Positions 3,693 through 52,100 of a stretch of 64,000 bases of DNA are shown here, one piece after another. This stretch comes from Leucoraja erinacea (lineage: Eukaryota), in NCBI RefSeq assembly GCF_028641065.1, contig NC_073392.1, positions 44,578,001 through 44,642,000 of the forward strand, read 5' to 3'. Under the pieces are notes generated by a model that did no database searches, was not told the origin of the DNA, and saw nothing but the letters and a program-made list of their open reading frames with translations. The stretch's first letter is position 1. Every line of letters begins with the position of its first letter. The translations under genes were made by a program, and so were the position numbers.

Positions 3693-3824
3693 TTCTGAAG
3701 AAGTGTTTCGGCCCGAAACGTTGCCTTATTTCCTTCGCTCCATAGATGCTGCTGCACCCGCTGAGTTTCTCCAGCATTTTTGTGTACCTTCGATTTTCCA
3801 GCATCTGCAGTTCCTTCTTAAACA
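3693..3824 (+). mobile_element. Short Penelope-derived element with minimal hammerhead ribozyme motif
   Basis: CTGAAGA-stem-GAAACGTT at 3695-3722; 15-bp TSD ACCCATCATTTATTT (3678-3692, 3825-3839). Confidence 0.7.
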
Positions 3825-5650
3825 ACCCATCATTTATTTGTTTGCCTCTGTACTCCATAATTTGAGATTTGTAATAGAGAAAAAAAATCATGTGTGGTTA
3901 AAGTGTGCATTATCAGATTATATTAAAGGGTATTTTTATACATTTTGGTTTCACCATGTAGAAATTACTTTTTGGAGGACAGGATAATTGCTGGACAGAT
4001 TTAATACGTGGAATATATTCCATACATGTCAATACATTTGTGCTTTTATTGGTCAATTAATGATTATCAAAAATAATTATTTTATAAATCTCCAGCCAGT
4101 CACTCAGAGCAAATAGGATATTTTTAATTTTCTCTTCTTTACCTGATGAGAACTCTTCAATAAAAGTCTCCAACCAATTGAACAATACATTACATTAGGA
4201 TAAATGATCATCCAATTCATATGCAATATTCGTCTAGTTGCAACTTCAGTTTTGTAACTAAGCAAACTCCCAAACTCTGAGGCCTGGACAAAGTTGAAAG
4301 CATGTGTGTGTGGAGGGTGGGGGGGAGAGATACACAGTCATGATACCTTAAAGCTCTGCACTTGAAACAATACATACCGTTACAAATTTCAAGCAACATT
4401 TAAAAGATCAATAGCACACATTGTTACATACTTCATATATCACTTTTGGGGTGAAGAAAAATGATATGAGAAAACAAGACAGTGACAAATGGCCATATAT
4501 TTGGCATCACTCTCATAATCATGTGTAATCTAGTGTTTGGAAGCAAGAACAACACTTCTCACATTGAAGACAAGGGACCAGGTACTGCTGGTCCAGACCT
4601 GCACCCTTCTCACTCAGTAACAGATCACTAGACCTGTCCATTCAGGCCACCAGTGGCAAGGTCTGACCCGCATCAAGGCTTCCCCAGCAGCACATTCAGA
4701 AAGCTTTGCCCTCAAAACACATTTAAAAGCATTGACAGCCAGAAAATCCGCACACCCTCATTCATCGGCTCAAAATACTGTATCAATTAGTAGTTTAAAA
4801 AAAAATCCCTAATAGCCAGAGCTATTTAAAAATTAGTTAAACAATAGAATAACTTTCTCTCTTCACAAATGAAGACTGGCCAGTAGAGTGTTTCCGGAAT
4901 TTCCTGTTTTTATTTCAGATATCCCACAGACACCCTTGCTTCATATCTGTAATTCAACTATCCCCAGTGAAATCAATAGGTCTGTGTACCTTGTATTACG
5001 AGGTCAAACCTGGCTTAGATTCTGAGAGGTAACTAATGGGCATTCTCAGCCAGGCACCATGTGATGAGTAGCAGCGTGAATGAACTAATTTGGCCTTACA
5101 AATCCGACAGTACACGTACAATAAGGCTTAGATTTGCTTCCATTTAAATGGTCTAGGCTGGCAGTATTGTTTTGAACTTACCAAAGATTGGGTTTATGAG
5201 GGTAGGGGAAAAGATGGGAAAGAAATCAAACAGCATCTTCCTATCATAATGCATGAAGATTGACCTTACCAACGAAAAAGTTCTCATGTAACCTGACAAA
5301 AGTTTGCTCTGGTGAATATCCCAGCTCCCATCATCATTCTGGTTGCAGTATATGTTAACTGCTAATGTTATTTTCCTAACCAGCTTGTCTGTAAAAATTC
5401 AACAGATTTAAGACCAATTTAATGGAATTTGTTTTGTTGCCAAGCATTGGGTAAGAATTTGGTGGCAGAATGAATCCCATGGGAAGCTATCATTGCTTGT
5501 TTATTTCCTCACCCTTCAGATCAAAACATTGCAGAACGTGCAACTGCTATTGATGAGGCATGACCCAAAGGGCAATCAAAGAATAATTGACAGTACGCTA
5601 CTTTTCTGAAAGACCCAAGTAATTTGGGGCAATTTACAACTTAATGATAT

Positions 5651-7010: not shown

Positions 7011-10000
7011 AGGCGGCCAAGTAAGTGGGCTCTTCCATTCCCACCTCCCCCCCCGCCGGTCACCCCGTCACCCGCCGGCTCCTCCACCCCCCCCCCCCCC
7101 CCGTCACACCGCCGGCTCCCCCCCCCCCCCCCCCCCCCCCCCCCGTGCACCCGCCGGCTCCTCCTCCCCCCCCCCGCCGGCTGCACCCGCCCTCCATTCC
7201 ACCGTGCCCCGCCGGCTCCTCCATTCCCACCCCCCCCCCCTCACCCTCGGCTCCCTCACACACGCTCTCTCAACCCCCCGCCCGCCGGCCTCACGCTCCC
7301 ACACTTATTCTCCTGTCCTCTTCTATTTTTTAACAGAATTAAAAAAGGCCAGCAAGCGCCTCTCGTGTCACAAGCGCTTCAAGATCCAAAAGAAGGTGAG
7401 TGAGTCAAGGCCAAGCCACGAGTTTGGAGACGCGACCACGTGGGTTAAATCTCTTTGGGAAGTTTTTCCTTTAAAGTTCGACAATCGGTTTTTATTACGT
7501 GTTCCCCGGATATACAAGGGTTGATGTAATACAATTGGGGGGGGGGGAGTTCAATGTTGAGCTTTTCCTGATATGTGCGCTTCAGATCGTCGCCGCGGCC
7601 TCACTCACGGTGTCAGACCCGGGTTCAATCCTGGCCTCGCTCCCTGTTTGGAGTTTGCACGTTCTCCCCGTGGGTTGTCTCCTCACCGTGGGTGTGCTCT
7701 GGTTTTCTTGGTTCCTCCCACATACCAAAGACGTGCGGGTTTCTAGATTAATTGGCCCTCTGTAAATTGCCCCTGGAGGGTGGGGAAGTGGAATAACAGA
7801 ACTCGGGTGAAGGGCTGATCGACAGTCGTCGTGGACTTGGTGGGCTGAAGGGTCCTCATCCATGTTGTCCATAAACTTTGAAAAAACATAATCACTATTG
7901 TAGACATACATTTTTTTAAATCATCAATCTACACACAATACCTCATAATAAAAAAGCAAAAACAGATGTTTAGAAACGTCTGCAAAGTAACTCAAAATAA
8001 ATAACTGAAACATCACATTTACATGAGTATTCAGACCCTTTACTCAGTACTTTGTTGAGGCACCTTTGGCAGTGATTACAGCCTCAAGGCTTCTTGGGTG
8101 TGAACCTACAAGCTTGGCACACCTGTACTTGGGTAATGTCTCCCATTCTTTGCAGATCCTCTCAAGCTCTGTCAGGTTGGATGGGGAGTGTCGATGCACA
8201 GCTATTTTCAGATTCCTCCAGAGATGATCGATCGGGTTCATGTCTGGCTGGGCCACTCAAGCACAGTCACAGACTTGTCACAAAGCCACTCCTGCGTTGT
8301 CTTGTCTGTGTGGTTAGGGTCGTTAGCCTGTTGGAAGATGAACCTCCGCCCCAGTCTGAGGTCCAGAACGCTCTGGAGCAGGTTTATCAAGGATCTGAAC
8401 TTTGCTCTGTTCATCTTTCCCTTTATCCTAACTAGTCTCCCAGTTCCTGACGCTGAAAAATATCCCCACAGCATGATGCTGCCACCACCGTGCTTCACTG
8501 CAGGTATGGTGTTGGCCAGGTGATGAGCGGTGCCTGGTTTCCTCCAGACATGACGGTTGGTATTCAGGCCAAAGAGTTCAATCTTGGTTTCATCAGACTG
8601 AAGAATCTTGTTTCTCATGGTCTAAGAGTCCTTTATGTGCCTTTTGGCAAACTCCAAGCGGGCTGTCGTGTGCCTTTTACTGAGGAGTGGCTTCTGTCTG
8701 GCCACTCTACCATAAATGTCTGGTTGGTGGAGTGCTGCAGATATAGTTGTCCTTCTGGAAGGTTCTCCCATCTCCACAAAGGAACTCTGGAGCTTTTTCC
8801 AGAGTGACCATCGGGTTCTTGGTCACCTCCTTGTCCAAGGTCTTTCTCCCCCGATTGCTCAGTGTGGCCGGTCGGCCAGCTCTATGAAGAGTCCTGGCGA
8901 TTCCAAAGTTGTTCCATTTAAGAATGACGGAGGCCACTGTGCTCTTCAGGACCTGCAATGCTGCAGAAATTGTTTTATACCCTTCCCCAAATCTGTGTCT
9001 CGATGCAATCCTGTCTCGGAGCTCTACGGACAATTCCTTCGTCTTCATGGCTTGGTTTCTGCTCGTCAACTGTGGGACCTTATATAGACAGGTGTGTGCC
9101 TTTCCAAATTGTGTACAATCAATTTAATTTACCACTGGTGGACTCCAAGCAAGTTGTAGAAACATCTCAAGGATAATCAATGGAAACATGATGCATTTAA
9201 GCTCAATTTTGAGTGTCATAGCAATGGGTCTGAATACTTATGTAAATGTGATGTTTCAGTAATTTCTTTTTAATTACTTTGCAAAAATTTCTAAACACCT
9301 GTTTTCACTTCTTCATTCTGGGATATTGTGTATAGATTGATGATTAATAAAATGAATTTAATCCATTATGAAATAAGGCTATAACGTAACAAATTGGAAA
9401 AAGTGAAGTGGTCTGAATACTTTCTGAATGCACTGTATATAGTTAATGAGGAACGATGGTGAGCGATCTCCCGTCTCTTTAAAGGGAATTTAGAAGTTTG
9501 GTCTTAGCAGAATCTGGTCAAGACGTATCAAGGTGTCCCTATTCTTGTAGTCTATCTGTTTTTCACTAAAAACAAACACATTCATATTTGGAGCCTTATT
9601 TTTTGTATATTCGCACTTTAAAAAAAATCCCATATTTGGAACAACTGGAACCTGCTACCTGTAAAAGTGGCAAAGGCAGACAGCCTTGACATAAGTTAAA
9701 AAAATATATACTTGGATGAGAATTTGGAAAGCCATAATCTGACAATAGACCAAAAACTAGGAAATTTCTATGATTCTTTAACTGTCTGGTAATATAAGTT
9801 CAGAATATTGTTTGGGTACCCACGCATTTTGAAATATTCTTGGAGGACTGTGAAACCAATCTCACCAAAGCAATGGTCAGGGGTCTAGACCTGAAACGTC
9901 ACACATTCCTTCTATTCAGAGATTCTGCCTGTCTGCTGAGTTACTGTGTCTCATCACTAGAGCAGGAGGGATTTCTGCAAGTAATGTCTAGTCAAGAAAT

Positions 10001-13000: not shown

Positions 13001-15336
13001 CCAGTCAAGTTTGAAGAGAAAAGTACATCTCTATGCAATGAGCTGTATAAGGTTAGTGTGCAGTTGAGAAGTGAAAATGTATTTACCATCATAACTGCTC
13101 ATTTGTGTTTCACTTAATTTAGAACAGTATTCTAAATTATGTGGGGAATCTAATTTGGTTTGCTGAAGTATAATTGCTGTTGGAAATTGAGGCTTAAATA
13201 TATCAACAAGTTGAGCAACAGAAGATACAGACTTAACAGAATAAATAGTGCAGTGCTGGCTCAAAGGGCCGAATGGCCTCCTGCACCTATTTTGTATGTT
13301 TCTCTTTATGCATTCCATGAAAGCTTTTTTTAGAAATCAGGTGGGGTAAAGCTTGATTTTAAGAAATTATTTTACCTGAGTTACTGCACAATTAACCTCT
13401 AATCTGTTTAGATACAATCACTGGTAGGAAGTAACTATTAAATATGAGAAGATTGTCAAATCCGGTTTTATAGCACCAGCAACCAATGTTTATTAGTTGC
13501 ATCATTGGGATTTGGGTATTATAATAGTTTCATGTAATTAATAGGTGATTGATGCTTCAGATGTGGTTCTAGAAGTGGTTGATGCCAGAGATCCTCTTGG
13601 TTCCAGATGTCCTCAGGTGGAGCAGGCAATCTTGCAGTCTGTGGGAAAGAAGCAACTAGTTCTTGTAATGAACAAAATTGGTAAGATAATATGTTAACTG
13701 CGTAGTTTTATTAATTAAATAACAAAATTATTAAACAGAATTGGGAATGGAGAGGGTGTGCATGTTTAGAATTTTGCCATTTGCAAAGTAAGTATAACTT
13801 TTTTTACTGTTTAGATTTGGTGCCAAAGGAGAACACAGAGAAATGGCTGAAATATTTGGGAAATGAGTTTCCTACTGTAGCTTTCAAATCGTCCACACAG
13901 CTGAAAGACAGGACAATGGTATGTTTCCCAAGAGGTTCTAATTTAACCCAATGAAGTGCTTTGTTTGTTTGACTGCCATAAAAACTGATGAAAGTTGTAA
14001 AACTCTTGATTTGTATGAAGAGAAAGTTCCAACTCTGATTTTATGCAGTTGATTAAAAAATATTTTTCCAACAATTTATCTTCTATGCAATTAAACAACT
14101 TTGTTTCTTTCCAAACAAAACAGTATGATACAAGCCCTTTGGCCCACGCTGTCAATGCCAAACATGATATATTTCCCTCCATCTCCATGTGGGTTTCTTA
14201 ATGCCACTATCGTGTCTGCCTCTGCCACCACCCCTGGCAGTACATTCCAGGCATTGACCACTGTGTTGGGGGAAAAAAAACCTTTCGTATTTTCTTAAAC
14301 TGAAAGCTTCTAAAATATTGGCCTTGTTTTAAGATGAACCAGAATGATGCAGAGCCTATTTTCTGCAAGTGTGCTAAAGGTTGCAGTGACCAATGTAATC
14401 AAATTGGCTGTATGGAATTTGTGTCTTGAGATATTATTGCTTTATTTGTAGCCCCTTTTACATACCTTATGCTATTTAAGTTGCATGTATGCTAATTCAA
14501 AATAGTTATTCAGATACCCAACACTGATTCCTCTCTTTATAGAGATGTAATGGGCTGCCTCATGGTTGTTCTCCAGTTCAGCAGCATAACTAAACCAGCA
14601 CCAGCATAACTAAACTGTTGTGGTACCCAGGAACAGCAAAGATTTGGGGTTGGGGTATTAGCATGTGGAAATAAGAGTTTGGTATTCCGACTGCGCATGC
14701 CCAGGTCATAGCTCACTCGCCATAAACATTATTGGTAGCTGAGCAGCTGAACCTTCGTTTCATCGTATTTTCCAGCTTTGATTCTTCTAGGTAGGAAAAT
14801 ACTGCTTTCAAACAATGAATTAGTTGTATTTATTGTTCCTTTGAACAAGCTACGATGATTTTCTCGTCTTTATTGCTTTATGGTTCGGTGAGATTGTGCT
14901 GCAGGGTGGGGTCTGGGGCTGGGTCCAGGTTTCCGGCATTGTAGGCGATGTTGAGTTGCTGCTGGGCCGTTCCCGTCAACTCCCGGGTGTCCAGGGTGGC
15001 CCTGGGCTGGCTGGGGCATCGGCCCACGCTTGCAGCCTGCGCAGGGGAAGAGGTACTGGCTCCAGCTCGGCTCTGCTCCGGGATCCATCGGCTGTGCCTT
15101 TCCTTGTCCAGTGGCTGTCAGCTGACCCACTCGGTGCCGGGGGGGGGGGGGGGGGGGGGAATCGCCGGGGATGCACACGGGATGCCGCGGTGGCTCGGCA
15201 GATTAGGCAACATCTCTGGAGAAGGGTCTCGACCCGAAATGTCACTCATTCCTTTTCTCCCAGGATGCTGACTGTCCAGCTGAGTTGCTGAACGGTTTAT
15301 GCTTATCCCCGTTGATGGTTGATGCTCATCTTGCGT

Positions 15337-15371
<35 letters not shown>

Positions 15372-18300
15372 CGTGGCGTGGCGGTGCCCCGGCCCGACGG
15401 GGAACGGGTTCCTCCGGAGTTGGAGTGGGGTTAGGCCGGAGTTGGAGCTTCTCCACACTGGCTGTGGGCCTGGGGCACACAGGAGTCCTGTTGGTCCGGG
15501 GTAGCCCCGGATATCACCTGCTGCCCAGTGGCGGTTCATAAGCGCTTGCGGTGCCGGGGATCCGGGTTTGATCCTGGCTGCGGATGAGGCAGGATTACCT
15601 GGAACCCCCGTTCCTCAGTTTTAATATATTTTTACACATAAATTATGAATAAAGATAAACATTTATACAGTTTATTCAGCCAGCGCTTTGTTTGCTTTTT
15701 CTTCATTGTGATTTTCTTTATTATTTATTCCTTTGACAAATTCCATGATTCCTTCGTTATTCGGAATACCGAACTCGCTTATTCAGTCTTCCATTTCCTC
15801 ACAAAATATAATGGGTTACTAATGTATTGCAACACTTGTGTTTAAAATGTGTGAACACAGTTAATGATTTAATTACAGCATAGCCAAAGAAGTTTCCATT
15901 CTAATTTTTATAAATTACTTTCACTTGAATAGGCACTGAATAAAAAATTGAGGAATGCTGTGGAGATATCCCGTAGCAATACCTGTGCAGGCGATGAAAC
16001 TCTTTTAAAATTGCTTGGGAGCTACTGCAGAAATCAAAATTTGAAAAGCATTAATGTTGGTGTTCTCGGTGAGTGTGTACTTACAAATTTAAGTCAATTA
16101 CTTAATGGTGACTTTAAATTTTCAAAATTTCTCTATCAAAATGGCTTTAACCATATAACAATTACAGCATGGAAACAGGCCATCTCGGCCCTACAAGTCC
16201 GTGCCGAACAACTTTTTTTCCCTTAGTCCCACCTGCCTGCACTCATACCATAACCCTCCATTCCCTTCTCATCCATATGCCTATCCAATTTATTTTTAAA
16301 TGATACCAATGAACCTGCCCCCACCACTTCCACTGGAAGCTCATTCCACATCGCTACCACTCTCTGAGTAAAGAAGTTCCCCCTCATGTTACCCCTAAAC
16401 TTCTGTCCCTTAATTCTGAAGTCATGTCCTCTTGTTTGAATCTTCCCTATTTTCAAAGGGAAAAGCTTGTCCACATCAACTCTGTCTATCCCTCTCATCA
16501 TTTTAAAGACCTCTATCAAGTCCCCCCCTTAACCTTCTGCGCTCCAGAGAATAAAGACCTAACTTATTCAACCTATCTCTGTAACTTAGTTGTTGAAACC
16601 CAGGCAACATTCTAGTAAATCTCCTCTGTACTCTATTTTGTTGACATCCTTCCTATAATTGGGCGACCAAAATTGTACACCATACTCCAGATTTGGTCTC
16701 ACCAATGCCTTGTACTAGACTAATTGGGACCCATTGGGTCTCTGTCACACAGGAAGCCTGGTCCCCCAACGCAAACCATTCCCCAATGCAAACCGTTCCC
16801 CAACGCAATATTCCACCACTCACCCGTTCCCCCAATGCAATATTCCACCACTCACCCATAGCCCACAGCTTCTATACTCAATGCTCTGATTTATAAAGGC
16901 TAGCATACCAAAAGCTTTCTTTACCACCCTATCTATATGAGATTCCACCTTCAAGGAACTATGCACGGTTATTCCCAGATCCCTCTGTTCAACTGTATTC
17001 TTCAATTCCCTACCATTTACCATGTACGTCCTATTTTGATTTGTCCTGCCAAGGTGTAGCACCTCACATTTATCAGCATTAAACTCCATCTGCCATCTTT
17101 CAGCCCATTTTTCCAAATGTCCTAAATCACTCTGTAGACTTTGGAAATCCTCTTCATTATCCACAACATCTTGGTATCATCTGCATACTTACTAATCCAA
17201 TTTACCACTCCTTCATCCAGATCATTGATGTACATGACAAACAACAAAGGACCCAACACAGATCCCTGAGGCACCCCACTAGTCACCTGCCTCCAACCCG
17301 ATAAATAGCCATCCACCATTACCCTCTGGCTTCTCCCATTCAGCCACTGTTGAATCCATCTTGCTACTCCTGCATTTATTACTCTACTAGTTTCCCTTAC
17401 CTCACATAATTTAATATCCTTCTCCTTGGTGAATACCGAAGAAAAAAAATTGTTCAATATCTCCCCCATCTCTTTTGGCTCTGCAGATAGCTGTCCACTC
17501 TGTCTCTCCAATGGACCAATTTTATCCCTCGTTATCCTTTCGCTATTAATATAGCTGTAGAAACCCTTTGGATTTACTTTCACCTTAGCTTTGTGGGCAT
17601 TTCTCAAATATCTTTGATTAAAAATTATGAGCAACTCTTGTTACAATATTCTTTTACATCCCTCATTCGTCCAATAAAATTAAAAATCATTTGATTTGGT
17701 TACTTGCTAATCATGCTGGTAAATTCAAATTTCCTTTGTGAGTGGAGACGCAAGATGGCAGATGCTGGAATCGGGAGCAAATCATAAACTGCTGGAGGTA
17801 TTTAAGTGGCATCTATCATGGCAAAAGTAGTCGATGTTTCAGATTGTGACCCTTCATCAGACTCTCTATTAAGAACTCTACGGATTTAGAATTTGAATTG
17901 AATCTAAAACAACAGTTCCCTAATAGTTGTCTCACGATATAATTCAAAGCATGCAATATATTCAATATTTTGTCCTTACCGATCCTTTTTGTTTCAGGCT
18001 TTACAAATGTAGGGAAAAGCAGTATAATTAACAGCTTGAAGAAAATGAGAGCTTGCAACGTGGGACAATTAAAAGGACTTACAAAGTAAGCTGTGATTAT
18101 GTTTGGAAATTTGTATATTTAAATGAAACAAAGTAGTTTTGGCCCAAATTTTCAGGATAACCCATACTATGTTTCTGCAGATGTTCCAAAGTTGCAAATT
18201 AAAAAAAAAAAATCAAATTAGTTGCACAGTAACATTAATTAGATTTTAGAATGCGCTTGAGAGTAGTTTTATTTCTTATAATACTTTTATTGGAATGTGC

Positions 18301-22426: not shown

Positions 22427-23678
22427 CTAATGAGCATCCTCTTCCTCTGGGTGTCGACGTACTGGGTGGAATTTTCCAGTAGGGTCTGGAATATACCACC
22501 TATCCCAGATTTCACTGTAAGGGGAAGTGCGACCCCAGGGTTTGAACCGCCCATTCCAATGCAGCAACTTGGCAGCGTTAATAAAATGTGGTGAATATCT
22601 GGTACCGGCACTAGACCCTACAAGAGGGGAAAAAATGCATAAATAGAATGTTAATCTTTATCTGAAATATGCTGGTAGTTATATTACAGTTGAATACAGC
22701 TCTGGTGAGACTATCTGGACTACTGCATTCAGTTTTCCCCTAACGATAACTTGGATAGCAAGGTGTTTTCTTGCTTGGTTATCTTGTAAACTAGACTAAG
22801 TGGGACCTGTTGGGTCCCATGTTCACACAGGAGGGCTGGTCCCCTGACGCAATATTCCACCTCTCCACCAATTCCAATATTGGTGGCTGGGGGGGGACGG
22901 GGGGGCTTTCTGGAGCGCTGGTATGGATGTTGTTGGCTGCAGGGACTACTGGTCTCCAGAGGGCTAGCATGAATATTGTGGGCCAAATGAATTATTGGGC
23001 TCAAACCTGATGTGCTGGCAGCTCACAGCTGGTGGGCTGGCAGTTGACTCACGGCTATTCCTTGAAATTCCATTTCAAGCAAGGTGCTAGACAACCAAAT
23101 TCAAATCCATTTTCCTACCATTTCAAGCAGGGTGCAAGGCCACCAAATTCAAGTGCAGTTTCATACCACTTCATGCAGGGTGCAACAACACCACATTCAA
23201 ATGCAGTTTTGTGCTATTTCAAGCAGGGTGAAACCACACAAAACACCACACAGTTCAGTAGACATTCAGTGTGTTCATTTGATTCACAGCTCAGACAGAG
23301 TCGTGACTCTCCCTCCCCCATCATGCAGAGACTGAGCCACACCCACACTTCCAGGTTTTATAATCCCTCCCCCCTCCCAACAGAAAAGGTGTGGCCTTCA
23401 TGGCGTGATTGACAGGAGATAGATTCTCAACATTTTTTAAACACTAATAACACTTTTGTTTTTCATTGATGGGAAGAATCCTCTGCACCTGATGAGCGGA
23501 GGGGAACTGAGTAAGATGGCCAAAAATCAGAGCCATAGGTGGTAGCGTTTTATCTAAATTCAATTTAGTGCAAACAGGAAGTTGTCAAGTTTAAACAAAC
23601 AACCATTTCCAGGCAGTGCCATTTCACTTCAACACATACCCCCCAAACCACTATTTGCATGCAGTGCCTTTTCACTTC

Positions 23679-26700: not shown

Positions 26701-29700
26701 TTATTGGACACTGATAAGCTCTTGAATGTTAAGCCTTTTGGTTAGTATTCAAGACTTGCATGCTGGTGTGGATTAAAAGTAAAGTGAAGGATTATTTTTC
26801 CAGTTCCACAGTCCCACTAATTAGTGGAGTCAAATGTTTCAGTCAAAAAAGGTCAGGTGTAATGTTTGGTGTTGCTTCCTGCATTTTAATTTGAACTGTG
26901 AAACAGTCAAGTTTATGTCCACTGTATCTCCAGATAGAATTTACACAGAAATTGGGTAATCTATTCATAGGCTGCAGGAAGACGGCATTTGAGGAGACTG
27001 AGGAGGGGAGCCCCCTGCTTACCACAGCCGGACCCTCCCATCTTGAGAAATTATGGCATCTCCAAGGTTTCCAGACACATCCTCCTCTTCCCGGAGGTAG
27101 ACAAATGATATTGTGCCGAAGAGTTTCAGTCAGAAACTCACCGTTTAGTTTAGATACTGTGTGGAAACAGGCCCGTAGGTCCACTGAATCCAGGCTGATC
27201 ATCAATCACCTGTACACTAGTTCCATCCAACATACTATGGAATATTTTACAGGCCATTTAACCTACAAACCTGCACATCTTTGGAAGTCCCGAGAAAACC
27301 CATATGGTCACAGGGAGGGTCAGCGCCCAAGGTCAGGATCAACCCATTTCTCCTTACGGGGTCCTTGAAAGCTTCATCATTGATCTTCTGACACCACTAC
27401 TGTTGCCACTGATGTTTCAGTAACAGGTTGATGGACATAATAGGGAAGATTAGGTGGTGCTCAATCCAGATGTTTTCAGTGTCTGTCTTTGATTGCTTGC
27501 ACAACAATGACCTAGCCGGTCTGAAGAAGGGTCTCGACCCGAAACGTCGGCAATTCCTTCTCCATAGATGCTGCCTCCTGGAGAAACCTGCTGAGTTTCT
27601 CCAGCATTTTGTGTCTACCTTCGATTTTACCAGCATCTGCAGATCTTTCTTAAACACCTAGCGGGTCCGAATGCTCCCATCAGAAGTGTACATCTTTTGC
27701 TTGTCTCTCTGACAAAGCGATGTTACAAGTAAGTCAAGAGAAGCTCTGAAGTTGGCATTCCTTTTCAGTGTGTCCTCCAGAAAGTGGTGTGCATGTTTTC
27801 ACTCAGTGCAACTGTTTTGAGTTCAAAACATCTGAGTACACCAATGATGATAAGAAAACTGTATTCCCATGAGGGTCCTGGCATTGTTCGGAACTGTGGA
27901 GTGGAAGGTACCTTTGCGTGTTTTTTTAAAAACAAAGGTCAGGATGGCTTCCATGAGCCAGCGTACTGTCCTAATAACCTCTAGTCCATTGCGGATGTTG
28001 AACATTGTCTACGGAACTAATCCACTACAATGTTGAGAACTATATTTTGCACTGTGTATCTTCCCCCTTGCTCTACATGAGATTGTATTTATGTGTAGTA
28101 TTATCTGATTTTACTGGATAGCATGCAAATCAAAGCTGTTCACTGCACCTCGGCACGCATAATAGTAATGAACCTAAACCGCGCAGTCTATTCTCAGCTG
28201 CAATACTGGGTTTCCATTATTAGACACTGCAATATATATTTATATATTGTTTTGAAAAATATTTCTGATAAAACTAAACTTACCAAGATGCCTGACATGC
28301 CACAATGGATCAATGGATGAGTGTTGTTTATAGAACACCAAGAGCATAGGTGGTGTCGTAACACTACCGGCCAGAGCACCCCCATACAAGTTCTCCCTGT
28401 GAAAATAAATGATGTGGCTATTAACTCCTGATTGCAAAGATATGCTGACATTTTTCATCGATTAATCAATTCCATTAAAGTCTGTAATTTGAATTAAATG
28501 TTTTGTTTTTTTTTGACTTGAGGGGTAAAATATCCCATAACTTATAACGATCTTTAATTATGTAGTCATCTACCTGCAGCAATGAAAATGTAAGTAATGG
28601 GGGTATGATTGCTCAGTGTTCTGCTGCGACTCGCCTTCTAACTCACTTTACACTAAGAAAAAGGTGTGGAGAAATACTTCTCCTTTAGCCAGATGGGTAC
28701 ACCAACAACACTCAGTATTCACCAATCAAAGCAAAGCAGCCCACATGATCAGATCTCTATCCTCCACATAAACTATCCTTTCCTCCACCCTTGCTGCAGT
28801 TCCATTTACAGAACTCTATTATAGTAACTCACCAAGTTTTCAAAAGCAACTTCGAAACTCATGATGTGCACTTCCTAGAAAGAGAGGGAGAGCAAACTCA
28901 TGGGAACGTTACCATCCCAATATCTCACATGAGACTGACTTGGACTTGATGCCTTTTCATCGTCATCACCAGGATAACACCCGGGAAATGGTTAATTAAT
29001 AGCCATTCATCCACAGTGATCCCTCAGCAGTTTATCACATTCAAAGTCAATTAGAAATGGGCAATAGACCATATTTCATGTATGAATTAAAAAAATAAAA
29101 TACAGAACATTTGAGAATAAAATATAAATACTTAAAAATTGAAGAACTTAAGAATTGCCATGATTATGAAAATAGTTTATTTGTAATTTTCTGTTATTCT
29201 TACACTGCAAACTTCCCTGTTCATCTATTATAGACACAAAATGCTGGAGTAATTCAGCAGGACAGGCAGCATTGCTGGATAGAAGGAATAGATAGAAGAA
29301 TGAAGAATGGTTTCGACCCAAAACATCACCCATTCTTTCTATCCAGAGATGCTGCCCGTCCCGCTGAGTTACTCCAGCATTTGTGTCTGTCTTTGGTGTA
29401 AACCAACATCTGCAGTTCCTTCCTACACTGTTCATCTATTGTGCTGCAATACTTCTGCTTTAACCTGAAAATAAGGAAAGGTTAGTTTAACAGCAAATTA
29501 ATATTTCCATGAAGATTGATATGCTTACATTGTAATTATTAGAAACTTACACCACATTGATTTCCATCCATTTTTCAAGCTGTTCTGTGATGTTTTGTTG
29601 TTTCCATTCTGTAAGATTTGCTACAAAGACACCAGGATTGAAGGAGCATGTGCCTGCCTTCATACCAAGTTTTCTAATTGTTTCCTTTTTATAATCAAGG

Positions 29701-32700
29701 AAGCCCAAATATGTGTTCTAGAAAACATAAGAGTTAACATTTCTTGTGGGTTATTTTATTTGAAATGTAGTGATTTCAGTCTCACCCTCTTCTCTTCTTC
29801 ACTTCACTTCCTTCTCCCCTCTCTCATCAGGCAAGAGTAACAGAAGGTTGAAGATGCATACTTCCAGATTCAGGAACAGTTTCTTCCCAGCTGTTATTAG
29901 ACAACTGAACAGTCCTTTCATCAGCTAGGGTGCAGTCCTGACCTCTGGAGACTTCTGAACTATCTTTAATCAAACTTTATTGGATTTCAATGTTAAATCT
30001 TGCACTAAATGTTGTACCCTTTATCTGTGCCCTGTGGATAGCTTCATTCTATTCATGCATAGTCTTTTCTTTGACTGGATAGCACGCAACCAAAAGCTTT
30101 TCACTGTACCTCGGTATATGCGACAATAATAAACTAAACTAGAGCATTGTTGCTGCCTGATCTGTTGTGTCTCCAGTACATTCTGCTTTCTTTTCTTCAC
30201 CCAGTGTAAACACCTCATTAGGGGTAAAGTTAATACTTGTTATGAGCCTACTCTAATTTACAAGTTATGTAAATACTTTTGGAAGAGCTGGGGATCAGAA
30301 AATCTTATGGTGGGGGCTAAACTGATCTCTTGGATAACTGATATCCATACTAATTTATTTTAGCTTTTTATATTGAATGATTTTTTTTTTTCAAGATGGT
30401 GCACTCAAAGCTCATGAAACGACATGATCCTGAATATACTCCACTCTCCTTACTTATATCAAATATCATATGAATATTTGTCCAGTATCTGCTAACAGCA
30501 AATTCTATCATGATTAAAAAATACCTGACTTCCAGCACCTCTGACCAGCACCTTGGAAGATATTTCACAATCTTCAGAAAAAGCAGCAGCATGACCTGGC
30601 TTTAGTTCAGTGTCATAAAGTTCGCGGATGTCTCCTAATGCAACAAATATAAGAGAGAAATAAATACATAGTGTTGTGTTAGGCTCTAATGTCTCAAAAG
30701 TGCTTCATGCATTGAATTTTGAAAAGCTGTCTTGTCCATGATTAATTAATTTTCAGGCTTGTTAGTTTACAGATAGTGCTGGGCATAGAGATTTCAATAA
30801 AAATAGAATAAAACTAGAATGAACCTCCCATGAATTGTTGATTGTTGGAAATAAATAATAATAAATAAATATAACAGAAAGTTCAAACTAGAAAGTTAGT
30901 GCACATTATTGAGCACTTCACTAAATTATGGAAAACATAATTCCTCTACACAACTCCGCATGTCATAAGTACATAGTTTAAAATTGAAGCAATAAAAGAT
31001 TACCTTGTACTATCACGTCATCATCCAGGTAAATGGCTTTCGCTGTGCCAGAAATCAACATCGGAAGGTAGAATCTTGCAAATGTCAACTAAAACAATGA
31101 AAGTTACCAAGCAAGATAAAAGTTTTAATTTTTCTTTCAAATGCATTTAATAAAAATATCTGAGATTATCAAAACAAACTGCTGTAATGGTTTAATTTCA
31201 GACATCATCTTTCACTATTAAACTTGTCAGAAATTATTGAGATAGCCATGTCTTATTGTATGTTGTATGTTTGTCTTATTTGTCTTTTTCAGTTATCAAA
31301 ATACTGACGTGGAAGGTATGAACACATCTTTGAAGGTAATGATGCGATTGAAAAATGTATGAAAAAAAGACACAAACTTTAAGATAAAATAAAAGTATTT
31401 AATATAAAATCTGGAAAGATATAACCATATAACAATTACAGCACGGAAACAGGCCATCTCGGCCCTACAAGTCCGTGCCGAACAACTTTTTTCCCCTTAG
31501 TCCCACCTGCCTGCACTCATACCATAACCCTCCATTCCCTTCTCATCCATATGCCTATCCAATCATAGATATGATTAACTATTATAAAACAATGGCCTGC
31601 TCTAAGGTGCAGGATTTTTTCCATTCTTTTTCCACTGCGATACAGGGAGGATTTCAAGAGCTTGGGGCCGGTTCAAGAATGATTTACACGAATGGTACCA
31701 GAGTTGAGAGACTTTGATTTTGTGGAAGGTCTGTAAAAGCTACATTTGTTCATGGAACACAGGATGGTTTATAATATGTTCAAAATTATATAAAATTCGC
31801 AAAGAGTGACTATGGAAAAACTGTATTCAAGAGGGTCAGTAGCAATATCTCCAGATTTAGAGTACTTGGTAAACGATGTGAAGAAAATGAATTTTCTTTT
31901 AAATATAGTAAGTTGTTATGATTCAGATTACTGTCTGATGTTGACAAATATGTTGGCAACTGAAAAAGGAAATGAACAATACATATGCTGAATTTGAAAA
32001 GTAAAATCTTATTGTGTTCAGCAAGGAGGACAGACTATTTGAAATGTTTATTGAAGATAAATAAAAGCAGATAATGCTGGAATCACTCAATAAGTAATCC
32101 AGTCGATGAGAAGCAGAATTAATGTTTCTGATTAAAGACCATTCGTCAGAACCAAAACACATAATTTACAGTTTCTGGATCTTGAATAAATCTTCCAAAG
32201 ATTGAGGCCTAGTACAAAGGGACAAATGCTCATCTATGCTGCACTTTAACCCACACAAACTCACAAACGGGGTACTCACTGATTTTACTTCAGGTGAATC
32301 ATCATCGTCGCTTCGGACTTTGCCTTTTAAAATGCGCAGGTCAAATTCTAGAATTTTATACTTAATATTCATCAGTTCTCGTCTCTGAAGCCAAGAGCTA
32401 AATCAGATGAAAAGAATAATTACAACCGCTCCATTCTGGAGTCAGATTAGAGAAGGTACAGAAAATATGAAGAAGATTGATTGATATTTGCAATTATTTG
32501 ATAATCATGTTCACCTTAAGTGACTCATTGTGTCATTTGTAGTAATTATATAAAAGACCACATTTGATCTGGTGTTACTATATATACTGTTGATAGCTGC
32601 TATTACACCTCCCAGTCGCTCTTCAACAGCAGGGATCAGAATTGGAATCTCTTCACCAGTCCTCTCTTCTGTAATTCTCAAAAAGTCATCCGGTTGTACT

Positions 32701-43195: not shown

Positions 43196-45054
43196 AATGC
43201 TCTACCAAATGCTTCACCAAATACACAAAACAAAATCCACAGGTGGAAGGTAGGTAGCATACTGACTGATTACATCATGGCCTGGTTCAATAACCCAAAT
43301 ACCCAAGAATGAAAAAAGCTGCAGAGAATGGTAGACATTGCCGATATTACAGGTACAGGCATCCCCACCTTCACAGGGATCAACAGGATCTCAAAAAGGC
43401 AGGTAATATCACCAGACCCAGAGCACCTTCACCACATTCTCATCTAGCTGTTATCATGGAAAGAAGGTACAGGAGTTTGAGAACTGTGACCTCCAGGTTC
43501 AAGAACAGCTTCTTCCTATCAACCATCTTGAACCACAGTGCACAACCCTAACCACATCCCTACCTCAGCAACGATATATTATGCAGCTTGTTTAGGTTGC
43601 ACTATACTTTGCTTTGTACTATTATGGTGTGGTTATCTAGTATAACTATATTTATTGTTTAGACAAAAATGCTGGAGAAACGCAGCGGGTGAGGCAACAT
43701 CTATGGAGCGAAGGAAATAGGCAACGTTTAGGGTCGAAACCCTTCTTCAGACATTTTTGCCTACCTTCGATTTTCCAGCATCTGCAGTTCCTTCTTAACC
43801 ATATAACCATATAACAATTACAGCACGGAAACAGGCCATCTTGGCCCTACAAGTCCGTGCCGAACAATTATTTTCCCTTAGTCCCACCTGCCTGCACTCA
43901 TACCATAACCCTCCATTCCCTTCTCATCCATATGCCTATCCAATTTATTTTGAAATGATACCAACGAACCTGCCTCTACCACTTCCACTGGAAGCTCATT
44001 CATTGTTTAGTTTAGTTTACAGATACAGCATTGAAACAGGCTCCGACCAGCGATCCTTGCACATTAACACTACCCTAGACACTAGGGACAATTTTTTATA
44101 ATTATATCAAGCCCATTAGCCTAGAAACCTGTACGTCTTTGGGAGTGTGGGAGGAACCCGAAGATCTTGGAGAAACCAAAGCAGGTCACATGGAGAATGT
44201 ACACACTCCACCAGTAGTCCGGATCAAACCCAGGTCTCGGTGGCTGTAAGGCAGCAACTCTAACGCTGTGCCACCGTGCATTGTGCACATTGATTATTGA
44301 TATTTATTTGTTGTGTTAAGCCTATTGTAACCCTGCAGCAAGCAAGAATTTCATTGTTCCCTGACAATTAAACATACTTGATACTCCAAAGGCAAACCAC
44401 TAAGCTAAGAGTTCAAGAGTTTAAGAGACATTTATTATCACATGCACCAATTGGTACAGTGAGATTTGAATGACCATACAGCCATACAAATAAAAAGAAC
44501 ACAATACACGATAGAATTTAAAATGAACAACCCCACACAGCAGAATCAATGTTTCCCATTGTGGGGGAAGGCAATAAAGTTGTGGGATGTGTGGGATGAG
44601 CGAATTTTTGTTCAATTAAGAGGCTAAACAGTTTAGATCTTTTCGGCCCAAAACGTTGCCTATTTCCTTCGCTCCATAGATGCTGCTGCACCCGCTGATT
44701 TTCTCCAGCATTTTTGTGTACCTTCGATTTTCCAGCATCTGCAGTTCCTTCTTGAACAGTTTAGATCTACGTTTTTTGGAGATTTGACGAATAAGAGGTG
44801 TCCTTATTCAAACATATAAAATCATACGAGGGCTTCACAGGATAGATCAAAGAGTAGATGAGTATAATATCCTCCTCTAGTATCTTTGGGATAGATGTTG
44901 AAATGTTTTAACAAGTGGGAGAGTCATGAACATAGGGACATGGCTGCAAAATAAGGATCCAGTCATGAGGTGCCCGAGGTGTGGAGAAATGTATTCTCCC
45001 AGATAGCAGTGAATATCTGGAATTCTCTGCCCCTGAGCATGGTGGAGGTCAGAC

Positions 45055-45087
45055 CAAAGATCCTATAGCTCCGCTATAGGATCTTTG
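45055..45087. mobile_element. 33-bp palindromic mini-element with 8-bp TSD
   Basis: caaagatcctatagc-tcc-gctataggatctttg flanked by GGTCAGAC on both sides. Confidence 0.75.
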
Positions 45088-45759
45088 GGTCAGACCATTA
45101 GATATATTTAAGGTGGAGGTGAGCAAATATGTGAAAGAAGAAGGAATTGTGAGTCATGGGGAACTGACACAGAAGAGTTGAGGTCATGATAGTTCAGCTG
45201 TGATCATATCGAGTGGCAGGGCAGACTTGAGGGACACAGTAACCTACTCCTGCTTTTATTTTATTTTGTTTTGGGGATGACTATGCATGTCATGTCAATT
45301 TATCCCCAGTAACATTTTAGGAGATTACACAGTAATTCATGTGTTCATAAAAAAAAACATTCAAACATTCCTATTGAGCTAAAACGGCGAAATCTTTAAC
45401 ATAACAATGTAGAACATGATCGTTCTCATCCTATGAATTGCACCGCTCCAAAGAATGTTGTAATTAGTTACTACACTTTCCGTTACATAACTGCAATTTA
45501 CTTCCACAATCTTGGTGAGAGCACAACACTGCCACGAAAACAGACTTTGCTAGGCATCCGTCATACTTTATAAAGAATAAAAAAAGTTAAGATGATAGTT
45601 ATTTTGGAGCGGGATCGATGCACACGTTGGCTGAGTAATCCAAAGAAAGTTGATGCAGGGAACCATCCTGTGGATGAAAATCAACGTCGGCTGTGATCGT
45701 GCAGAAGACAACTTGCCCGGCAACCAACACAAAAACAACATTTAAAAACACAGAAAGAC

Positions 45760-46152
45760 TTTACCTACTTTATTCGGGAAGTTTTGAATGAACAGCCGCC
45801 AACTGCCAACTCAGCATGGGACAGGACAGGCAGCGGGCCGTCTAACTCACTGCCTGAATCATCCGTGACCGTGCAACAAATCTAAAGAAGCGATGGTATG
45901 TCACTTTAGATTGATCCCAGGCTGGGAGTTGGTGGTTGTTATGTTTTATCATTTGTTGGGTGTGCGGGCGTTAGTTGGGCAGGTGGGCTGGTTGCTAAGG
46001 CGAGGGGGCCTTGTGGGGAATGATTGCGTCTCCTTAAGGCCAATGAGCCTATAGGATCTCTGCTTGCGGCGGCGGGAGGACGACGTGGACGGGCGGGCTG
46101 CGAGTGCACAGACAGCGGGGTCGCTGGCGGGAGCGGCGGAGAGGCCTAAAAG
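45760..46152. promoter_or_regulatory. Bidirectional CpG-rich promoter of GLT8D1/SPCS1, with candidate non-coding GLT8D1 exon 1
   Basis: CpG-rich, CCAAT at 46040, GC boxes; minus-strand donor candidates GTAAAG (45764) and GTGAGT (45850). Confidence 0.6.
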
Positions 46153-49100
46153 ATGATTTCCTACTTTAAATCGCTCCCTACTCACATGGTAAGAAGGAAG
46201 TGGAGGAGGAGAAATACTCGAGGCTCAGGCTGTGGCCTGTGGATAGGACGGGGCGGCCTGGCCTCGAGTGAGGGAAACTTCTGACTTTCTGTGTATAGCG
46301 ATTAGCAAACGGCTAGTATTAGTATTATCTCTCAAATACAAGGGGAAAAACGATAGGGGAAAGGCCGTCGGGTCTAGGTTTGAAGAAGGGTCTCGACCCG
46401 AAACGTCACCCATTCCCTTTCTCCAAAGATGCTGCCCGTCCCGTTGAGTTACTCCAGAATTTTGCGTCTATCTTGGGTTTGGGTTTGTTGCATTCGTCTG
46501 CACCGTAAACACCCTGCCCTCATCCCCACAATATGGTGCGATTGAACCATATTCGCGTCAATTGACAGCGTTTTCTCTCTTAAACCAACCCAGTGAACGT
46601 GCAGCTCACTCCAACACCATAAGGCCGCCCAGAGAGCCATTCCAGTCGATCACGGGAGATTTGCACCTTGGAGAAGCCCCTTCTCTTCGAAGATACATTT
46701 GGAAGGAAAGTTAGACAGGGAAGGGGAAGCAAATCAAATAGGCTCAGAAGGTGCTCGATGCGGAGTATAAACCCTGCCGTGGACATGCCGATTTTGTGCT
46801 GCATATATTTGTTTAAATACAGGATGCCGGCCTCTTTGTAGTTTTCAAGTCAGCTCGGAACATACAGATCAAAAATCGGGGTCGACATCTTCTACAACCG
46901 TTAATGACGCTGAGAGAGAGGTGTTTGTTGTATTGTAACGTAAACTGAATAGAACCGTGTTGTCATAGGCAGAGTGTGTTTGGGTTGGTGGAGAGTCAGT
47001 GATGGTGGCGGCGCAGCTAATGTGAACTGAGCAGAATGAAGCTCTCACTTTCTGTGTATGAGGATTAGAAAACGGACCACGATATATCTCATGCAAGGGG
47101 AACACGATGGAGATAGAACATCAGGTTTCGGTTTGTCGCATTAGTTTGCAGCGTAAAAATCTGACCCTTATCCCCACAATATTGAATATGGTGTGAGTGA
47201 ACCATACTCGCGGTATTGACGATATTTTCTCTTTAAATCAATCCAGTCGCCTCGGATGACTGCAGATAGGAATTGATTACATTTTTATCTGTGTCCAATT
47301 ACCCTTGATAATGTTATAATTTAAATATATTTGCTTTACATCAAAAATGTTCATATCGATTAATAATTACAGATGGAAATAGCCTGCCTAATCTTGTACT
47401 TTATCTCTCATCATCAAACTGTGAACAGTTTTGGCCTTCACTTACTGACAGCTGCCCCTTAAAACTAAGTGAAGTATAGTTAAAATTATGTTGACGTTTT
47501 TTTTTTTTAATGCAGTGTTTTTGTAAGTAATGGAAACATTGCATTGCAGTATAATGAAAAGTAAGCTTAAAGCTGAAAAAATTACACTTAACAGCATATT
47601 TCAAAATCAAAAAGTTGAGACATTTTATTTCCATGGATCTGCTTATAATAAGCTGACAAGTGTAGATTTTGAATTAGAAAATTAGATAAATCTACTTCAA
47701 CTGGGAAAGTGGACCAAGAAATAGCAGATGGAATTGAACTTGGAAAATATTCATTTTGTTATGTATTTAGTTAGGCCAGGAATTGCACAGTAAATGACAG
47801 GGCTCTGGAGAGTGTTTTAGAACAAAGGGTATAACTACATAGTTACTTAAAAGTGGTGAAGGTGACATTTGACACGTTTGCCTTTATTGAATACAATAGT
47901 TGGGATGTTATTTTACTGCTATCTAAAATATTGGTGAGACCACATTGTGAGAGTATTGTGTGTAGTTCTGGTTGCTCGACTATAGGAAGAATATCATTAA
48001 GCTTGAAAGGGTGCAGAAAAAGTTTATGAGGATGTAACTGGGACTTGGAGACTTGAGTTATAAGGAGAGACTGAATAAGCTGGAGTATTTTTCCCTGGGG
48101 TATGGTACAGAGGGGTGGGGGGCTTGAATACATTCAGAGATGAATGTCAGCCTTTTTCTCAGGTTTTGGAAATATAAAACCAGAGAATATAGATTTAAGG
48201 TGAAATGTAAAATATTTAAAGGAAACCCAGTGTGCAACTTTTTAACATGGTGCGTGTGGAATTATCTGCCAGAGGAAGTTGTAGAGGCGGGTACAATTAC
48301 ACCGTTTAAAAAGCATTTGGACAGGTGCATGGATAGGAAATGTTTAGAAGGATGGGGACCAAATGCAGATAAACAGGACTACTTTCTTAGTTGGCATGGA
48401 TGAGTTGCGATTGCTTGAAGCAGACTTATTATTGTCATATATACAGAAGTATGTTAGAAAGCTTTTTCGCAACTTTTGAATTGGCATCCAAACAGCAACA
48501 CATTTTCACAAGATATTGTTCCCATTCATATCACTGGATGGTAAGCCGCATCATGAGATGCCAAGATCTGGAGCAAAATAACATTTTTTTTCCCAGAGGT
48601 CAGAGCATTCATGTAGAAGACATATAACCATATAACAATTACAGCAGGGAAACAGGCCATCTCGGTCCTACAAGTCCGTGCCGACACAACTTTTTTTCCC
48701 TTAGTCCCACCTGCCTGCACTCATTCCATAACCCTCCATTCCCTTCTCATCCATATGCCTATCCAATTTATTTTTAAATGATACCAACGAACCTGCCTCC
48801 ACCACTTCCACTGGAAGCTCATTCCACACCGCTACCACTCTCCGAGTAAAGAAGTTTCCCCCTCGTGTTACCCCTAAACTTCTGTCCCTTAATTCTGAAG
48901 TCGTGTCCTCTTGTTTGAATCTTCCCTATTCTCAAAGGGAAAAGCTTGTCCACATCAACTTTGTCTATCCCTCTCATCATTTTAAAGACCTCTATCAAGT
49001 CCCCCCCCCCTTAACCTTCTGTGCTCCAGAGAATAAAGACCTAACTTATTCAACCTATCTGTAACTTAGTTGTTGAAACCCAGGCAACATTCTAGTAAAT

Positions 49101-52100
49101 CTCCTCTGTACTCTCTCTATTTTGTTGACATCCTTCCTATAATTGGGCGACCAAAATTTTACACCATACTCCAGATTTGGTCTCACCAATGCCTTGTACA
49201 ATTTTAACATTACATCCCAGCTTCTATACTCAATGCTCTGATTTATAAAGGCTAGCATACCAAAAGCTTTCTTTACCACCGTATCTATATGAGATTCCAC
49301 CTTCAAGGAACTATGCACGGTTATTCCCAGATTCCTCTGTTCAAATGTATTCTTCAATTCCCTATCTGAAGAAAGGTCCCTGTTTTCCCAGGCGAACATC
49401 ACCATGCTCAACATACATTGCTGGTTTCCCTGAGTGGTTATATCATTCATATCTAAACTCCAAACCAATCATTTAACTCTGAGCTCTGTCACGGCAAGAG
49501 ATTACAAGAGAATGGAGGAAATGCATAAACATTGTTTTGGAGGTTTTGTGGAGAAAAAATATATAATCTTTGCAGACTGGGAATTGCAGCTGTACAAAAC
49601 TTTGTTTAGGCCAGATCTGGAATATCGCGTATGGTACACACTGCATTACAAATACGTGAAGGCCTTGGAGAGGATTATAGAATATTAGCGATAAGGAGAG
49701 ACTGGACAAACTTGGGTTCTTTTCTATAGAGCGTTGGCGACTGAGATGCGATTTGATAGAAATGTATAAAATGATGAGAATCTCAGATGTACTCGGGTTT
49801 TTTCCCCAGTCTGAAAATAACAAGTGCCGGAGGACATAAAAGGACCCAAAGTGCTGGAATAACTGTCGGGCAGCATCTCTAGAGAGACCATGGATAGCTG
49901 ACATTTTAGGTGGAGACCCTTCTCCAGACTGATTGCAGGGGGGAGGGGGAGAAGAAAGCTGGAAAAGGGGAGGCAGGTCAAAGCGTGGTAAGTGATGTCG
50001 ACATAGACAAGGGGGGGGGGGGGGGTTGGATAGGCAGATGGAAAGATGGAAGAAAGGCCAGATATAAGAACAGAAGGTGTGAATTAGAGGGCATAGCTAT
50101 AAGATGATTGGGGTTTTTTTTTAACATGGAGTATGGTACGTGCCTGGAACTGCTACCAATGGAGGTGATGGAAGCTGATACAATAGCAACATTGTGGCAC
50201 CTCGACAGGTACATAGATAAATTACAGATCACATGGAGGCAGATAGGATTAGTTTATATTTCTGGACCTGAAACTTTACTTATTCCGTTTCTCTAGAGAT
50301 GCTGCCTGACCTGCTGAGTTACTCCAGTTTTTTGTGTCTTATCTTCTTTTCTTTTGGTGAGCTAAATCCTTAGTTCAGAGAAAGCTGAGGGGAAACCTGA
50401 TTGATGTATACAGAATTATGAAAATCTTGGATGAGATGGATAGTGAGAAGCTTTCCCCCTTAGCAGAGGTATCAACAACCAGAAGACCTGGATTTAAAAT
50501 CCAGATTTGGACATTTTAAATGGGATTTGTAGATTTTTTTATATTTTTGTCACGCAATGGTTGATTGCAATCTGTAATGTTCTGCTCAAGGTGGTGGTGG
50601 AAGCATGCATGCCCTTAACATTCAAATACAATGTAAATTAGCACTTAACTCCATTACATGGAAGAATATAGGCTGATAACTGTAACATGAAAGTAATATA
50701 GATTGACATTTGATAGGCTGTTGGGTCTCTACCATTGCTTTGTGATTCTAACTCTGAAGGTTTGCAGTAGTCATTGTTGAAATTAATGTAAATGTGGTAA
50801 AGTCTCAAGTAGCAGTAAGATAAAGATTGGAATCTGTTTCTCAACATGGCATGGGAATAAATACTGATCAGTGTGTAGTTGCTGTTGAAATAATAAAGTT
50901 CAAAAAGTTAATTTTAATTTAGAACTAGACTAAGTGGGACCCATTGGGTCCAGTCACACGGGAGGCATGGTCCCCCAATGCAACCCATTCCCCAATGCCA
51001 CCACTCGCCTGTTTCCCCCAATGCAACGGCGGGTGTGTTCTGTAGCCGGGGGACAGCTTCAGACGGGAAACTTCCTGCGGCCAGGGGAGGCGGTTGGCTT
51101 CAAGGGGGCTGGTGGGTGGGTGTGTGTGTGGGATGGGAGGGGGCGCGCTTGGGGGGAGGGGAGGGGGTGCGTGCTCACCAGGCCCCGGCTCTGCTTCAAC
51201 CGCACTCCTGGCTCCAGGACCTGGCTCTGGACTCACACAGCTGCTCCCGTCCCCAGCGCCTGTCGCGCTCAAAGCTCCCGCCCCGCCCGCGGAACAGAGC
51301 CCACACTGCTTCAGCTTTATTCTCGACGGGCTCACAGACTCTGCCCCGCCTCTGGGGTTTTATTCTTCAGCGGGTGCCAGAAGGGACGTTACCTTCATGG
51401 TGACTGGCGGGCGCGAAGACCAATCTGCTGATTTAAAAAAAAAAAAACTTCATAACTTTTGTAATCTTCCACCTATCGGAACAAAACTTGGTGGCTTGGA
51501 GCAGAGGAGAATGGTGAGGTGGCGAGTAATTCTAGCGATTATAGGGTAGTGTTTTTACGCTCATTTAAATACAATGCAGACTGGAAGTGGTCAAGATGAG
51601 ATATTAATAATTGTATATATGTGACTATTCATCGATTTTTGTCTCTGTTAAACTGCACTGCCAAGGGAGCAAGAACAGAAGAATTATTATAAATGCAACC
51701 ATTGATTGTCATGGCTTACAGGTGCTCCTCAACATACGATGGGGTTATGTTCCGATAAATCCATTGTAAATTGAAAATATAATAAATTGAAAATGCATTT
51801 AATACACCTAACCTTTAGTGGCCGCCCGCATTGTCTGGTGGTGGCCAAGAGAGGTTCCTGTCTTCAGATATTTACTTGAAACAGATTTTTTTTTAATTAA
51901 TTTTTTTAAAAGCACAGGTGTCCAGCGAAAGCGGTTGCCACAAGTTTATATTTAATAGCAGCGACTGTGCCTATCCGTGTTGTACGTAGTCGATGCCAGA
52001 GCTCCACTGTCTGCACAAGTTGTTCTGGATGTATCAATGTTACAAAATTTTGAGATTTAAAAAATCAAGTCTAATTTATCCCATCAGATAAAGCATAAAA

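Follow-up and report, generated by a model that had tools for sequence, protein, structure and literature searches.

Short hammerhead-headed repeats in a 64-kb stretch of the Leucoraja erinacea genome as probable by-products of Penelope-like elements

A 64,000-nucleotide stretch of the genome of the skate Leucoraja erinacea (assembly GCF_028641065.1, contig NC_073392.1, positions 44,578,001 to 44,642,000; hereafter the window) contains 14 insertions, comprising 18 arms, of a short repeat headed by a minimal hammerhead ribozyme motif. Together these insertions account for 1687 of the 64000 bp (i.e. 2.6% of the window). The stubs are probably (at roughly 0.78) short, dead-on-arrival products of autonomous Neptune-type Penelope-like elements (PLEs) and not a separate ribozyme family, which would make them a largely ordinary, expected PLE by-product.

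The hammerhead-headed repeat and its ends

The window was searched using BLAST with five of its own copies and an nhmmer profile of 11 copies. A preliminary description of this DNA had named 11 positions, and BLAST, nhmmer and alignment placed the repeat at every one of them, confirming that it is real and far above chance. Additional arms were detected at 2068-2163(+), 2935-2994(-), 15205-15225(-), 29230-29292(-), 43745-43801(+) and 50259-50345(+). A strict minimal-hammerhead descriptor matched three sites (27521, 17860 and 32149) and none in each of 12 dinucleotide shuffles, and a relaxed descriptor (one core mismatch, palindromic stem III) matched five window sites as compared to a mean of 0.5 in shuffles. 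The Rfam hammerhead models had no match in the window at E≤1, the only Rfam matches being SNORD19-type small nucleolar RNAs (snoRNAs) and weak microRNA matches. No protein match was obtained with the translated head as query, and the internal motif of the family was not found in the viral_contigs or genome_contigs collections. Weak profile matches at 4854-4916, 30150-30204 and 63879-63976 (E 0.003-0.4) may represent very old copies of the family.

The majority sequence of 13 heads contains CUGAAGA, a bulged A, a 4-bp stem II with a tetraloop, GAAA, an ACGU palindrome and C17 or U17, and hence both core boxes (i.e. CUGANGA and GAAA-NN-UH), in agreement with the earlier assignment to the Penelope-type minimal type I hammerheads. 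Individually, the two boxes were complete in 3/9 heads, and only one of the nine tabulated heads that reach C3 (27521) has kept core, stem II and palindrome together; its stem I consists of 1 bp (one G-U pair). An unpaired A between positions 9 and 10.1 was present in 9/9 heads, stem II with G10.1-C11.1 was paired at 4/4 positions in six of nine (over the 13 heads, 86.5% of cells were paired), and a palindromic 15.2-16.2 (ACGT) was present in four of nine and in the majority line. GAAA was lost in heads 43750, 29300, 49927 and 354, and the copies have lost most of the 5′ strand of stem I.

Ends of the insertions were counted relative to the hammerhead C3. For 13 of the 14 units the 5′ end fell within -9 to +30 and eight of these lay within -9 to +2; the remaining units started in stem II or loop II (four units) or at +30 (one unit), and one probably extends upstream. 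Starts were thus clustered at the upstream edge of the ribozyme rather than at the cut site, and the consensus of the loose ends of 377 contigs (run X16) was lost ~4 nt upstream of the core. As eight of 14 units start at this edge and only one unit and one inverted arm start near the cut site, these ends argue that cleavage is not usually what defines the PLE template. The 3′ ends of the 18 arms were at +129/130 for six arms, at +89 to +102 for six and elsewhere for six. Stand-alone tail-only fragments were not found in the window with tail-only profiles, which argues against a constant rate of truncation.

Direct repeats resembling target site duplications (TSDs; score ≥10) were found at 5/14 units as compared to 5% of 300 random positions. 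The TSDs of 11-15 bp previously described at 3693 and 27521 were recovered as 15/15 matching bases and as ~12 bp with one mismatch, respectively, the latter running into microhomology with the head. An empty site for the 3693 insertion was observed in reads and contigs from other copies of its surroundings (joint 3677->3825, with 15 letters fitting either side), the insertion having landed in a sequence that is itself multicopy. Where reads stop at 3824, their loose ends are random (agreement 0.35). This multicopy host repeat spans 3540-3950 and is presumably Tc1-like. Inverted arms were present in four of the 14 units and were joined via microhomology at or near the head, and all units were solitary or head-to-head, with no tandem arrays.

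Links to Penelope-like elements and competing explanations

The window contains a PLE 3′ fragment (Table 1) whose CX4CxxC linker assigns it, by sequence, to the end of a Neptune/Nematis-type PLE (PMC8557442). Linker and CCHH motif bear out the GIY-YIG PLE end noted previously at 665-1512. The fragment has one frameshift near 1090, a stop at 1423-1425 and a pyrimidine-rich 3′ untranslated region (UTR) that halts at 1512, before any hammerhead. The GIY-YIG fragment shares 90% identity with a protein model of Leucoraja erinacea, which marks the DNA as skate-like, and its full-length relatives contain both reverse transcriptase (RT) and GIY-YIG. The hammerhead copy at 2068..2163 is on the same strand, and the two may be one PLE end interrupted by another repeat (1513-2067). 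This intervening element is moderately repeated and contains an 81-bp inverted repeat (1742-1908) and a GA microsatellite.

An association of heads with PLE open reading frames (ORFs) was observed in metagenome contigs from unidentified hosts, which were scanned with a pattern of core plus stem II, stem I being left out. The scan produced 123 matches in 120 loci, some of which are the same place sampled again. For 27/123 heads, a homologous GIY-YIG (37-59% identical to window 1090-1422) was located 69-113 nt ahead on the same strand; in one exception (L001:4001-4926) the head is ~900 nt upstream of the GIY-YIG end, again on the same strand. In viral_contigs, no locus was obtained by searching with the GIY-YIG. 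Of 23 hand-picked metagenome loci, 11 have direct repeats of 10-15 bp, most having 3′ ends near +90 or +140, and in one metagenome family 17 of 27 copies (including three duplicates and at least one internal deletion) stop ≤24 nt upstream. Three-bp stems I were formed by 16 of 34 distinct triplet pairs in the metagenome heads as compared to 3.8 when shuffled, a count reached in 0/5000 shuffles, and 44 of the 65 distinct contexts had a stem I of 3 bp or more. This strong covariation marks the motif as a genuine structure under selection across the wider family; any activity in the skate is hypothetical. Among 199 homologous proteins, the RT/GIY-YIG frame of a shark model (P0004) continues past the usual stop into a C-terminal peptide that matches translated window heads at up to 7/11 residues, and similar read-through peptides are present in P0059, P0080 and P0083. 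These are all gene models and may be spliced; P0004 suggests a hammerhead placed directly behind the ORF.

From the observed ends, TSDs, inversions and decay of the stubs we infer the following course of events. The PLE endonuclease (EN) would nick the target, and RT would begin copying from an internal position, one of two that lie downstream of the hammerhead. The uncleaved RNA would then be copied through the ribozyme, with termination just upstream of the core, and the end of the cDNA would either anneal to the target via microhomology or fold back to produce an inverted arm, leaving the inserted ribozymes as inactive passengers. The two classes of 3′ end match a 'tail' of 30-40 bp that separates two positions at which RT can start (PMC11167929), and the structure of inverted copy plus tail matches descriptions of PLEs (PMC8557442, PMC3846280), both of which favour a PLE by-product.

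Several observations weigh against this interpretation. Stem I in the window is 0-3 bp, with only 2 bp in the main subfamilies when paired with the native upstream AGT. Pairing and covariation in the 13 window heads were no higher than in shuffles, as expected of decaying copies. Arms 2935-2994 and 29230-29292 start at ~+30, 1-2 nt beyond the predicted cut site, and may be products of cleaved RNA. Head-to-body fold-back pairing reached p<0.05 in only one of eight copies. The 5′ pile-up is family-dependent, with a weak showing of 5/30 in another metagenome family (largely censored or indel cases). Within the window and the joints listed, the GIY-YIG 3′ UTR of this genome is nowhere joined to a head: a joint from 1512 to a head was absent from the 15 joints listed of 3427, and the tract upstream of 49927 aligned to 1400-1515 with a score of 42 as compared to a shuffle mean of 43. 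Finally, the window holds one ORF fragment and 14 stubs, an excess that a dedicated non-autonomous master would also give.

Within the truncated-PLE reading, the 5′ boundary can be explained in more than one way. At somewhat under even odds, the pile-up reflects stalling or fold-back of RT at a structured, protein-bound hammerhead or palindrome and not a true RNA 5′ end. The starts inside stem II or loop II (4/14 units) and at +30 are consistent with such stalling, as are the use of microhomologies around C3 by the inverted junctions, the palindrome 13-24 nt upstream on which the ends of one metagenome family centre, and the palindromes described at inverted junctions (PMC3846280). Most ends, however, lie just beyond the structure and not ahead of it, and fold-back energies were mostly no better than those of shuffles.

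More tentatively, the stubs could be strong-stop-like cDNAs, for which RT would start ~90 or 130-140 nt downstream and continue until the PLE transcript runs out at its true 5′ end, an initiator-like TCAGT located three bases ahead of the core. The ribozyme would then be copied uncut and serve something other than template ends. The resemblance of this TCAGT to an initiator is our assumption from the consensus. An initiator-like TCACT has been reported in a rotifer pseudo-long terminal repeat (pLTR; PMC3846280). An initiator at -3 was rejected as a universal explanation, as it is missing from several metagenome families and the ends of one lie at -13 to -24. If true, the strong-stop explanation would imply a spacing conserved from skates to distant marine hosts and would turn genomes into a vast natural record of where PLE transcription and RT begin. 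Published accounts leave open what the hammerhead contributes to PLE transposition (PMC8557442, PMC11167929).

A dedicated non-autonomous element, i.e. a short interspersed nuclear element (SINE)-like or retrozyme-like master of ~135 nt with its own transcription that is mobilised in trans by PLE protein, is unlikely. Non-autonomous PLE derivatives do exist (PMC8557442; bioRxiv 10.64898/2026.07.22.740005), stubs outnumber ORF ends 14:1 in the window, summed read depth (which is not a copy number) is higher over heads than over the GIY-YIG part, and the 5′ ends are clustered. These ends are nevertheless ragged (-9 to +30), the same stubs and geometry arise from several subfamilies and distant hosts, tandem arrays are absent among the 14 units, there is no poly(A) end, and the tail and inverted arms are those of ordinary PLE insertions. 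RNA polymerase III promoters contain A and B boxes, for which the consensus was used here; no exact A or B box was present in five copies examined, the window contains no tRNA gene or tRNA-derived head, and 5S and 7SL heads had no Rfam match. The distinct trans-mobilised family proposed in the preliminary description was accordingly not upheld.

Quite improbable is a boundary formed by a 3′ splice site, with a pyrimidine tract and CAG ending an intron of the terminal repeat and the spliced RNA acquiring a different stem I partner. Such a tract and CAG lie directly upstream of 49928, copies 27521 and 46380 open with GGT and not AGT, and the intron of D. virilis Penelope stops where the 5′ side of helix I begins (PMC4209133; PMC2377424), but the stubs have no common exon-1 sequence ahead of them, most metagenome families lack such an acceptor, and no spliced joint was present among the joints listed.

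Insertions, host genes and other repeats

The insertions and the genes that surround them are given in Table 1. Exon positions come from a scan for splice sites combined with short characteristic peptide motifs; PBRM1 and GLT8D1 would each begin with a putative first exon without coding sequence.

Table 1. Insertions, PLE fragment and presumed host genes in the window (ends relative to C3)
Feature	Position	Strand	Description
PLE 3′ fragment	641..1512	+	RT-thumb/linker with CX4CxxC; GIY-YIG with CCHH
Unit	227..376	-	Head-to-head; in PBRM1 intron
Unit 227..376, minus arm	350-227	-	+6 to +130, full tail
Unit 227..376, short plus arm	345-376	+	Holds upstream CCCATCAGT and core
Unit	2068..2163	+	Begins ~+15 to +17, without CUGA
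Unit	2935..2994	-	60-bp copy, begins ~+30 (1-2 nt beyond predicted cut site); TSD 13 bp, 1 mismatch
Unit	3693..3824	+	132 bp long; intact core, mismatch breaking stem II; TSD 15/15 perfect
Unit	9879..9945	+	Decayed, begins in stem II; GNL3 intron, sense
Unit	15205..15289	+	Short inverted arm 15205-15225 joined to head via 11-nt overlap; core A6->G
Unit	17752..17863	-	Diverged, older subfamily; keeps the CUGAUGA core, lacks the palindrome; GNL3, antisense
Unit	27518..27656	+	Sole copy with intact core, 4-bp stem II, ACGT and H17; antisense in GLT8D1
Unit	29230..29428	+	Inverted arm (+30 to ~+90) and direct copy with tail; TSD 13/13; core decayed
Old relative	32064..32149	-	Exact minimal-hammerhead core; weak family match (E=0.04)
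Unit	43660..43801	-	Head arm 43752-43660 (to +92); G12 lost
Unit 43660..43801, inverted tail arm	43745-43801		+75 to +130; joined to 5′ end of head arm
Unit	44641..44758	+	Young copy, begins in loop II, full tail; TSD 10-14 bp (14/14 matching), overlapping tail end
Unit	46378..46480	+	Sense, SPCS1 intron 1; C3->U; 3′ end near +100
Unit	49834..50030	-	Old copy; ATCAGT and pyrimidine tract ahead; probably the only copy reaching upstream into the terminal repeat (extent inferred)
Unit	50259..50345	+	Decayed, begins in stem II; SPCS1 intron 1
PBRM1 (presumed)	2704-2546	-	First coding exon
GNL3 (presumed)	~7020-21200	+
GLT8D1 (presumed)	~45800-22430	-
SPCS1 (presumed)	46153 to ~54150	+	Intron 1 46190-53525

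On the placed exons all 14 units are intronic, seven in sense and seven in antisense orientation, such that no intronic orientation bias was observed (p=1, low power). Cleavage of host pre-mRNA by sense intronic copies, raised in the preliminary description, is most improbable. Half of the units are in sense orientation, copy 46380 in SPCS1 happens to pair with its flank to give a stem I of 3 bp, and the family is seen in RNA reads of both strands. Against these points, 46380 carries C3->U, each of the three heads with CUGANGA and GAAA lies antisense to the gene that hosts it, the 5′ strand of stem I is mostly lost, and no neighbouring partner is present for a dimer. Furthermore, such ribozymes are weakly active (PMC4209133) and depend on dimer formation or a helping protein to cleave (PMC4209133, PMC11167929), the anole element is inactive without protein (PMC11167929) and 8/9 Xenopus dimers were uncleaved (bioRxiv 10.64898/2026.07.22.740005). 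Read mapping covered window 200-3950 with oligo-dT and single-cell libraries, of which about 5% and 1%, respectively, were sampled; for 43500-47500 no RNA data set with a match was listed. No pile of read starts or ends was listed, including at the predicted cut site 3722/3723, although these libraries are ill suited and this result was not counted as evidence. Overall, there was no sign of the stubs affecting host genes.

Three SNORD19/19B-type box C/D snoRNAs are located in GNL3 introns (13971-14050, 18639-18711 and 19052-19123, plus strand). A complex tandem array at 23600-25500 has 51-bp subunits and higher-order units of ~450-560 bp. Related fragments resembling the 3′ ends of long interspersed nuclear elements (LINEs), which we take to be CR1-like, are up to 97-99% identical and occur at 3150-3536, 16148-17379, 31422-31563, 33970-35083, 43803-44147, 48626-49517 and 55878-56080. 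An open frame at 63100-63283 (-) resembles a helicase C-terminus and is presumably of the PIF1/Helitron helicase-like type.

Comparison with known systems

No paper on PLE hammerheads of skates or sharks, or on clustering of 5′ ends at the ribozyme, was found in the literature searched. The skate heads share with the minimal hammerhead ribozymes of metazoan PLE pLTRs (PMC4209133) the core boxes, the extra nucleotide before stem II, the G10.1-C11.1 pair, a palindromic 15.2-16.2 without a loop III and an occurrence as dispersed single copies, which have already been ascribed to truncated PLEs (Cervera and de la Pena 2014, PMC4209133). Their stem II of 4 bp and stem I of 2 bp (as in D. virilis) differ from the 7-8 and 4-5 bp of the Schistosoma type; cartilaginous fish are not mentioned in the accessible portion of that source.

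Non-LTR retrozymes are likewise PLE-derived, non-coding and dispersed as monomers with a type I hammerhead, and their survey includes one chondrichthyan, but they form head-to-tail tandem arrays with intact hammerheads (bioRxiv 10.64898/2026.07.22.740005) as compared to 0/14 tandem units in the window.

The RT of Poseidon from Anolis carolinensis (PAc) has two internal start sites beyond the hammerhead, and the distance between them equals the genomic tail; mutating the hammerhead leaves insertion normal, and cleavage requires the protein (PMC11167929). PAc and the stubs share two classes of 3′ end that lie downstream of the hammerhead at ~35-40 nt from each other and, for the stubs by analogy of mechanism, an uncleaved RNA template. 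PAc belongs to a different clade, a linker Zn finger being present in the window fragment, and clustering of 5′ ends is not described for it in the accessible portion of PMC11167929.

The stubs also resemble the insertion units of endonuclease-containing (EN+) PLEs, which consist of a 5′-truncated pLTR, a 30-40 bp tail and an adjacent inverted copy (PMC3846280, PMC8557442). The tail, the head-to-head inverted arms with palindromes or microhomology at their junctions and the TSDs of ~10-15 bp are shared, whereas the window units differ in being very short (60-200 bp), dense (14 in 64 kb) and started at the hammerhead edge. The stubs resemble the EN+ PLE end module and exhibit its testable features, the exceptions in this genome being covariation of stem I and a join placed directly behind the ORF.

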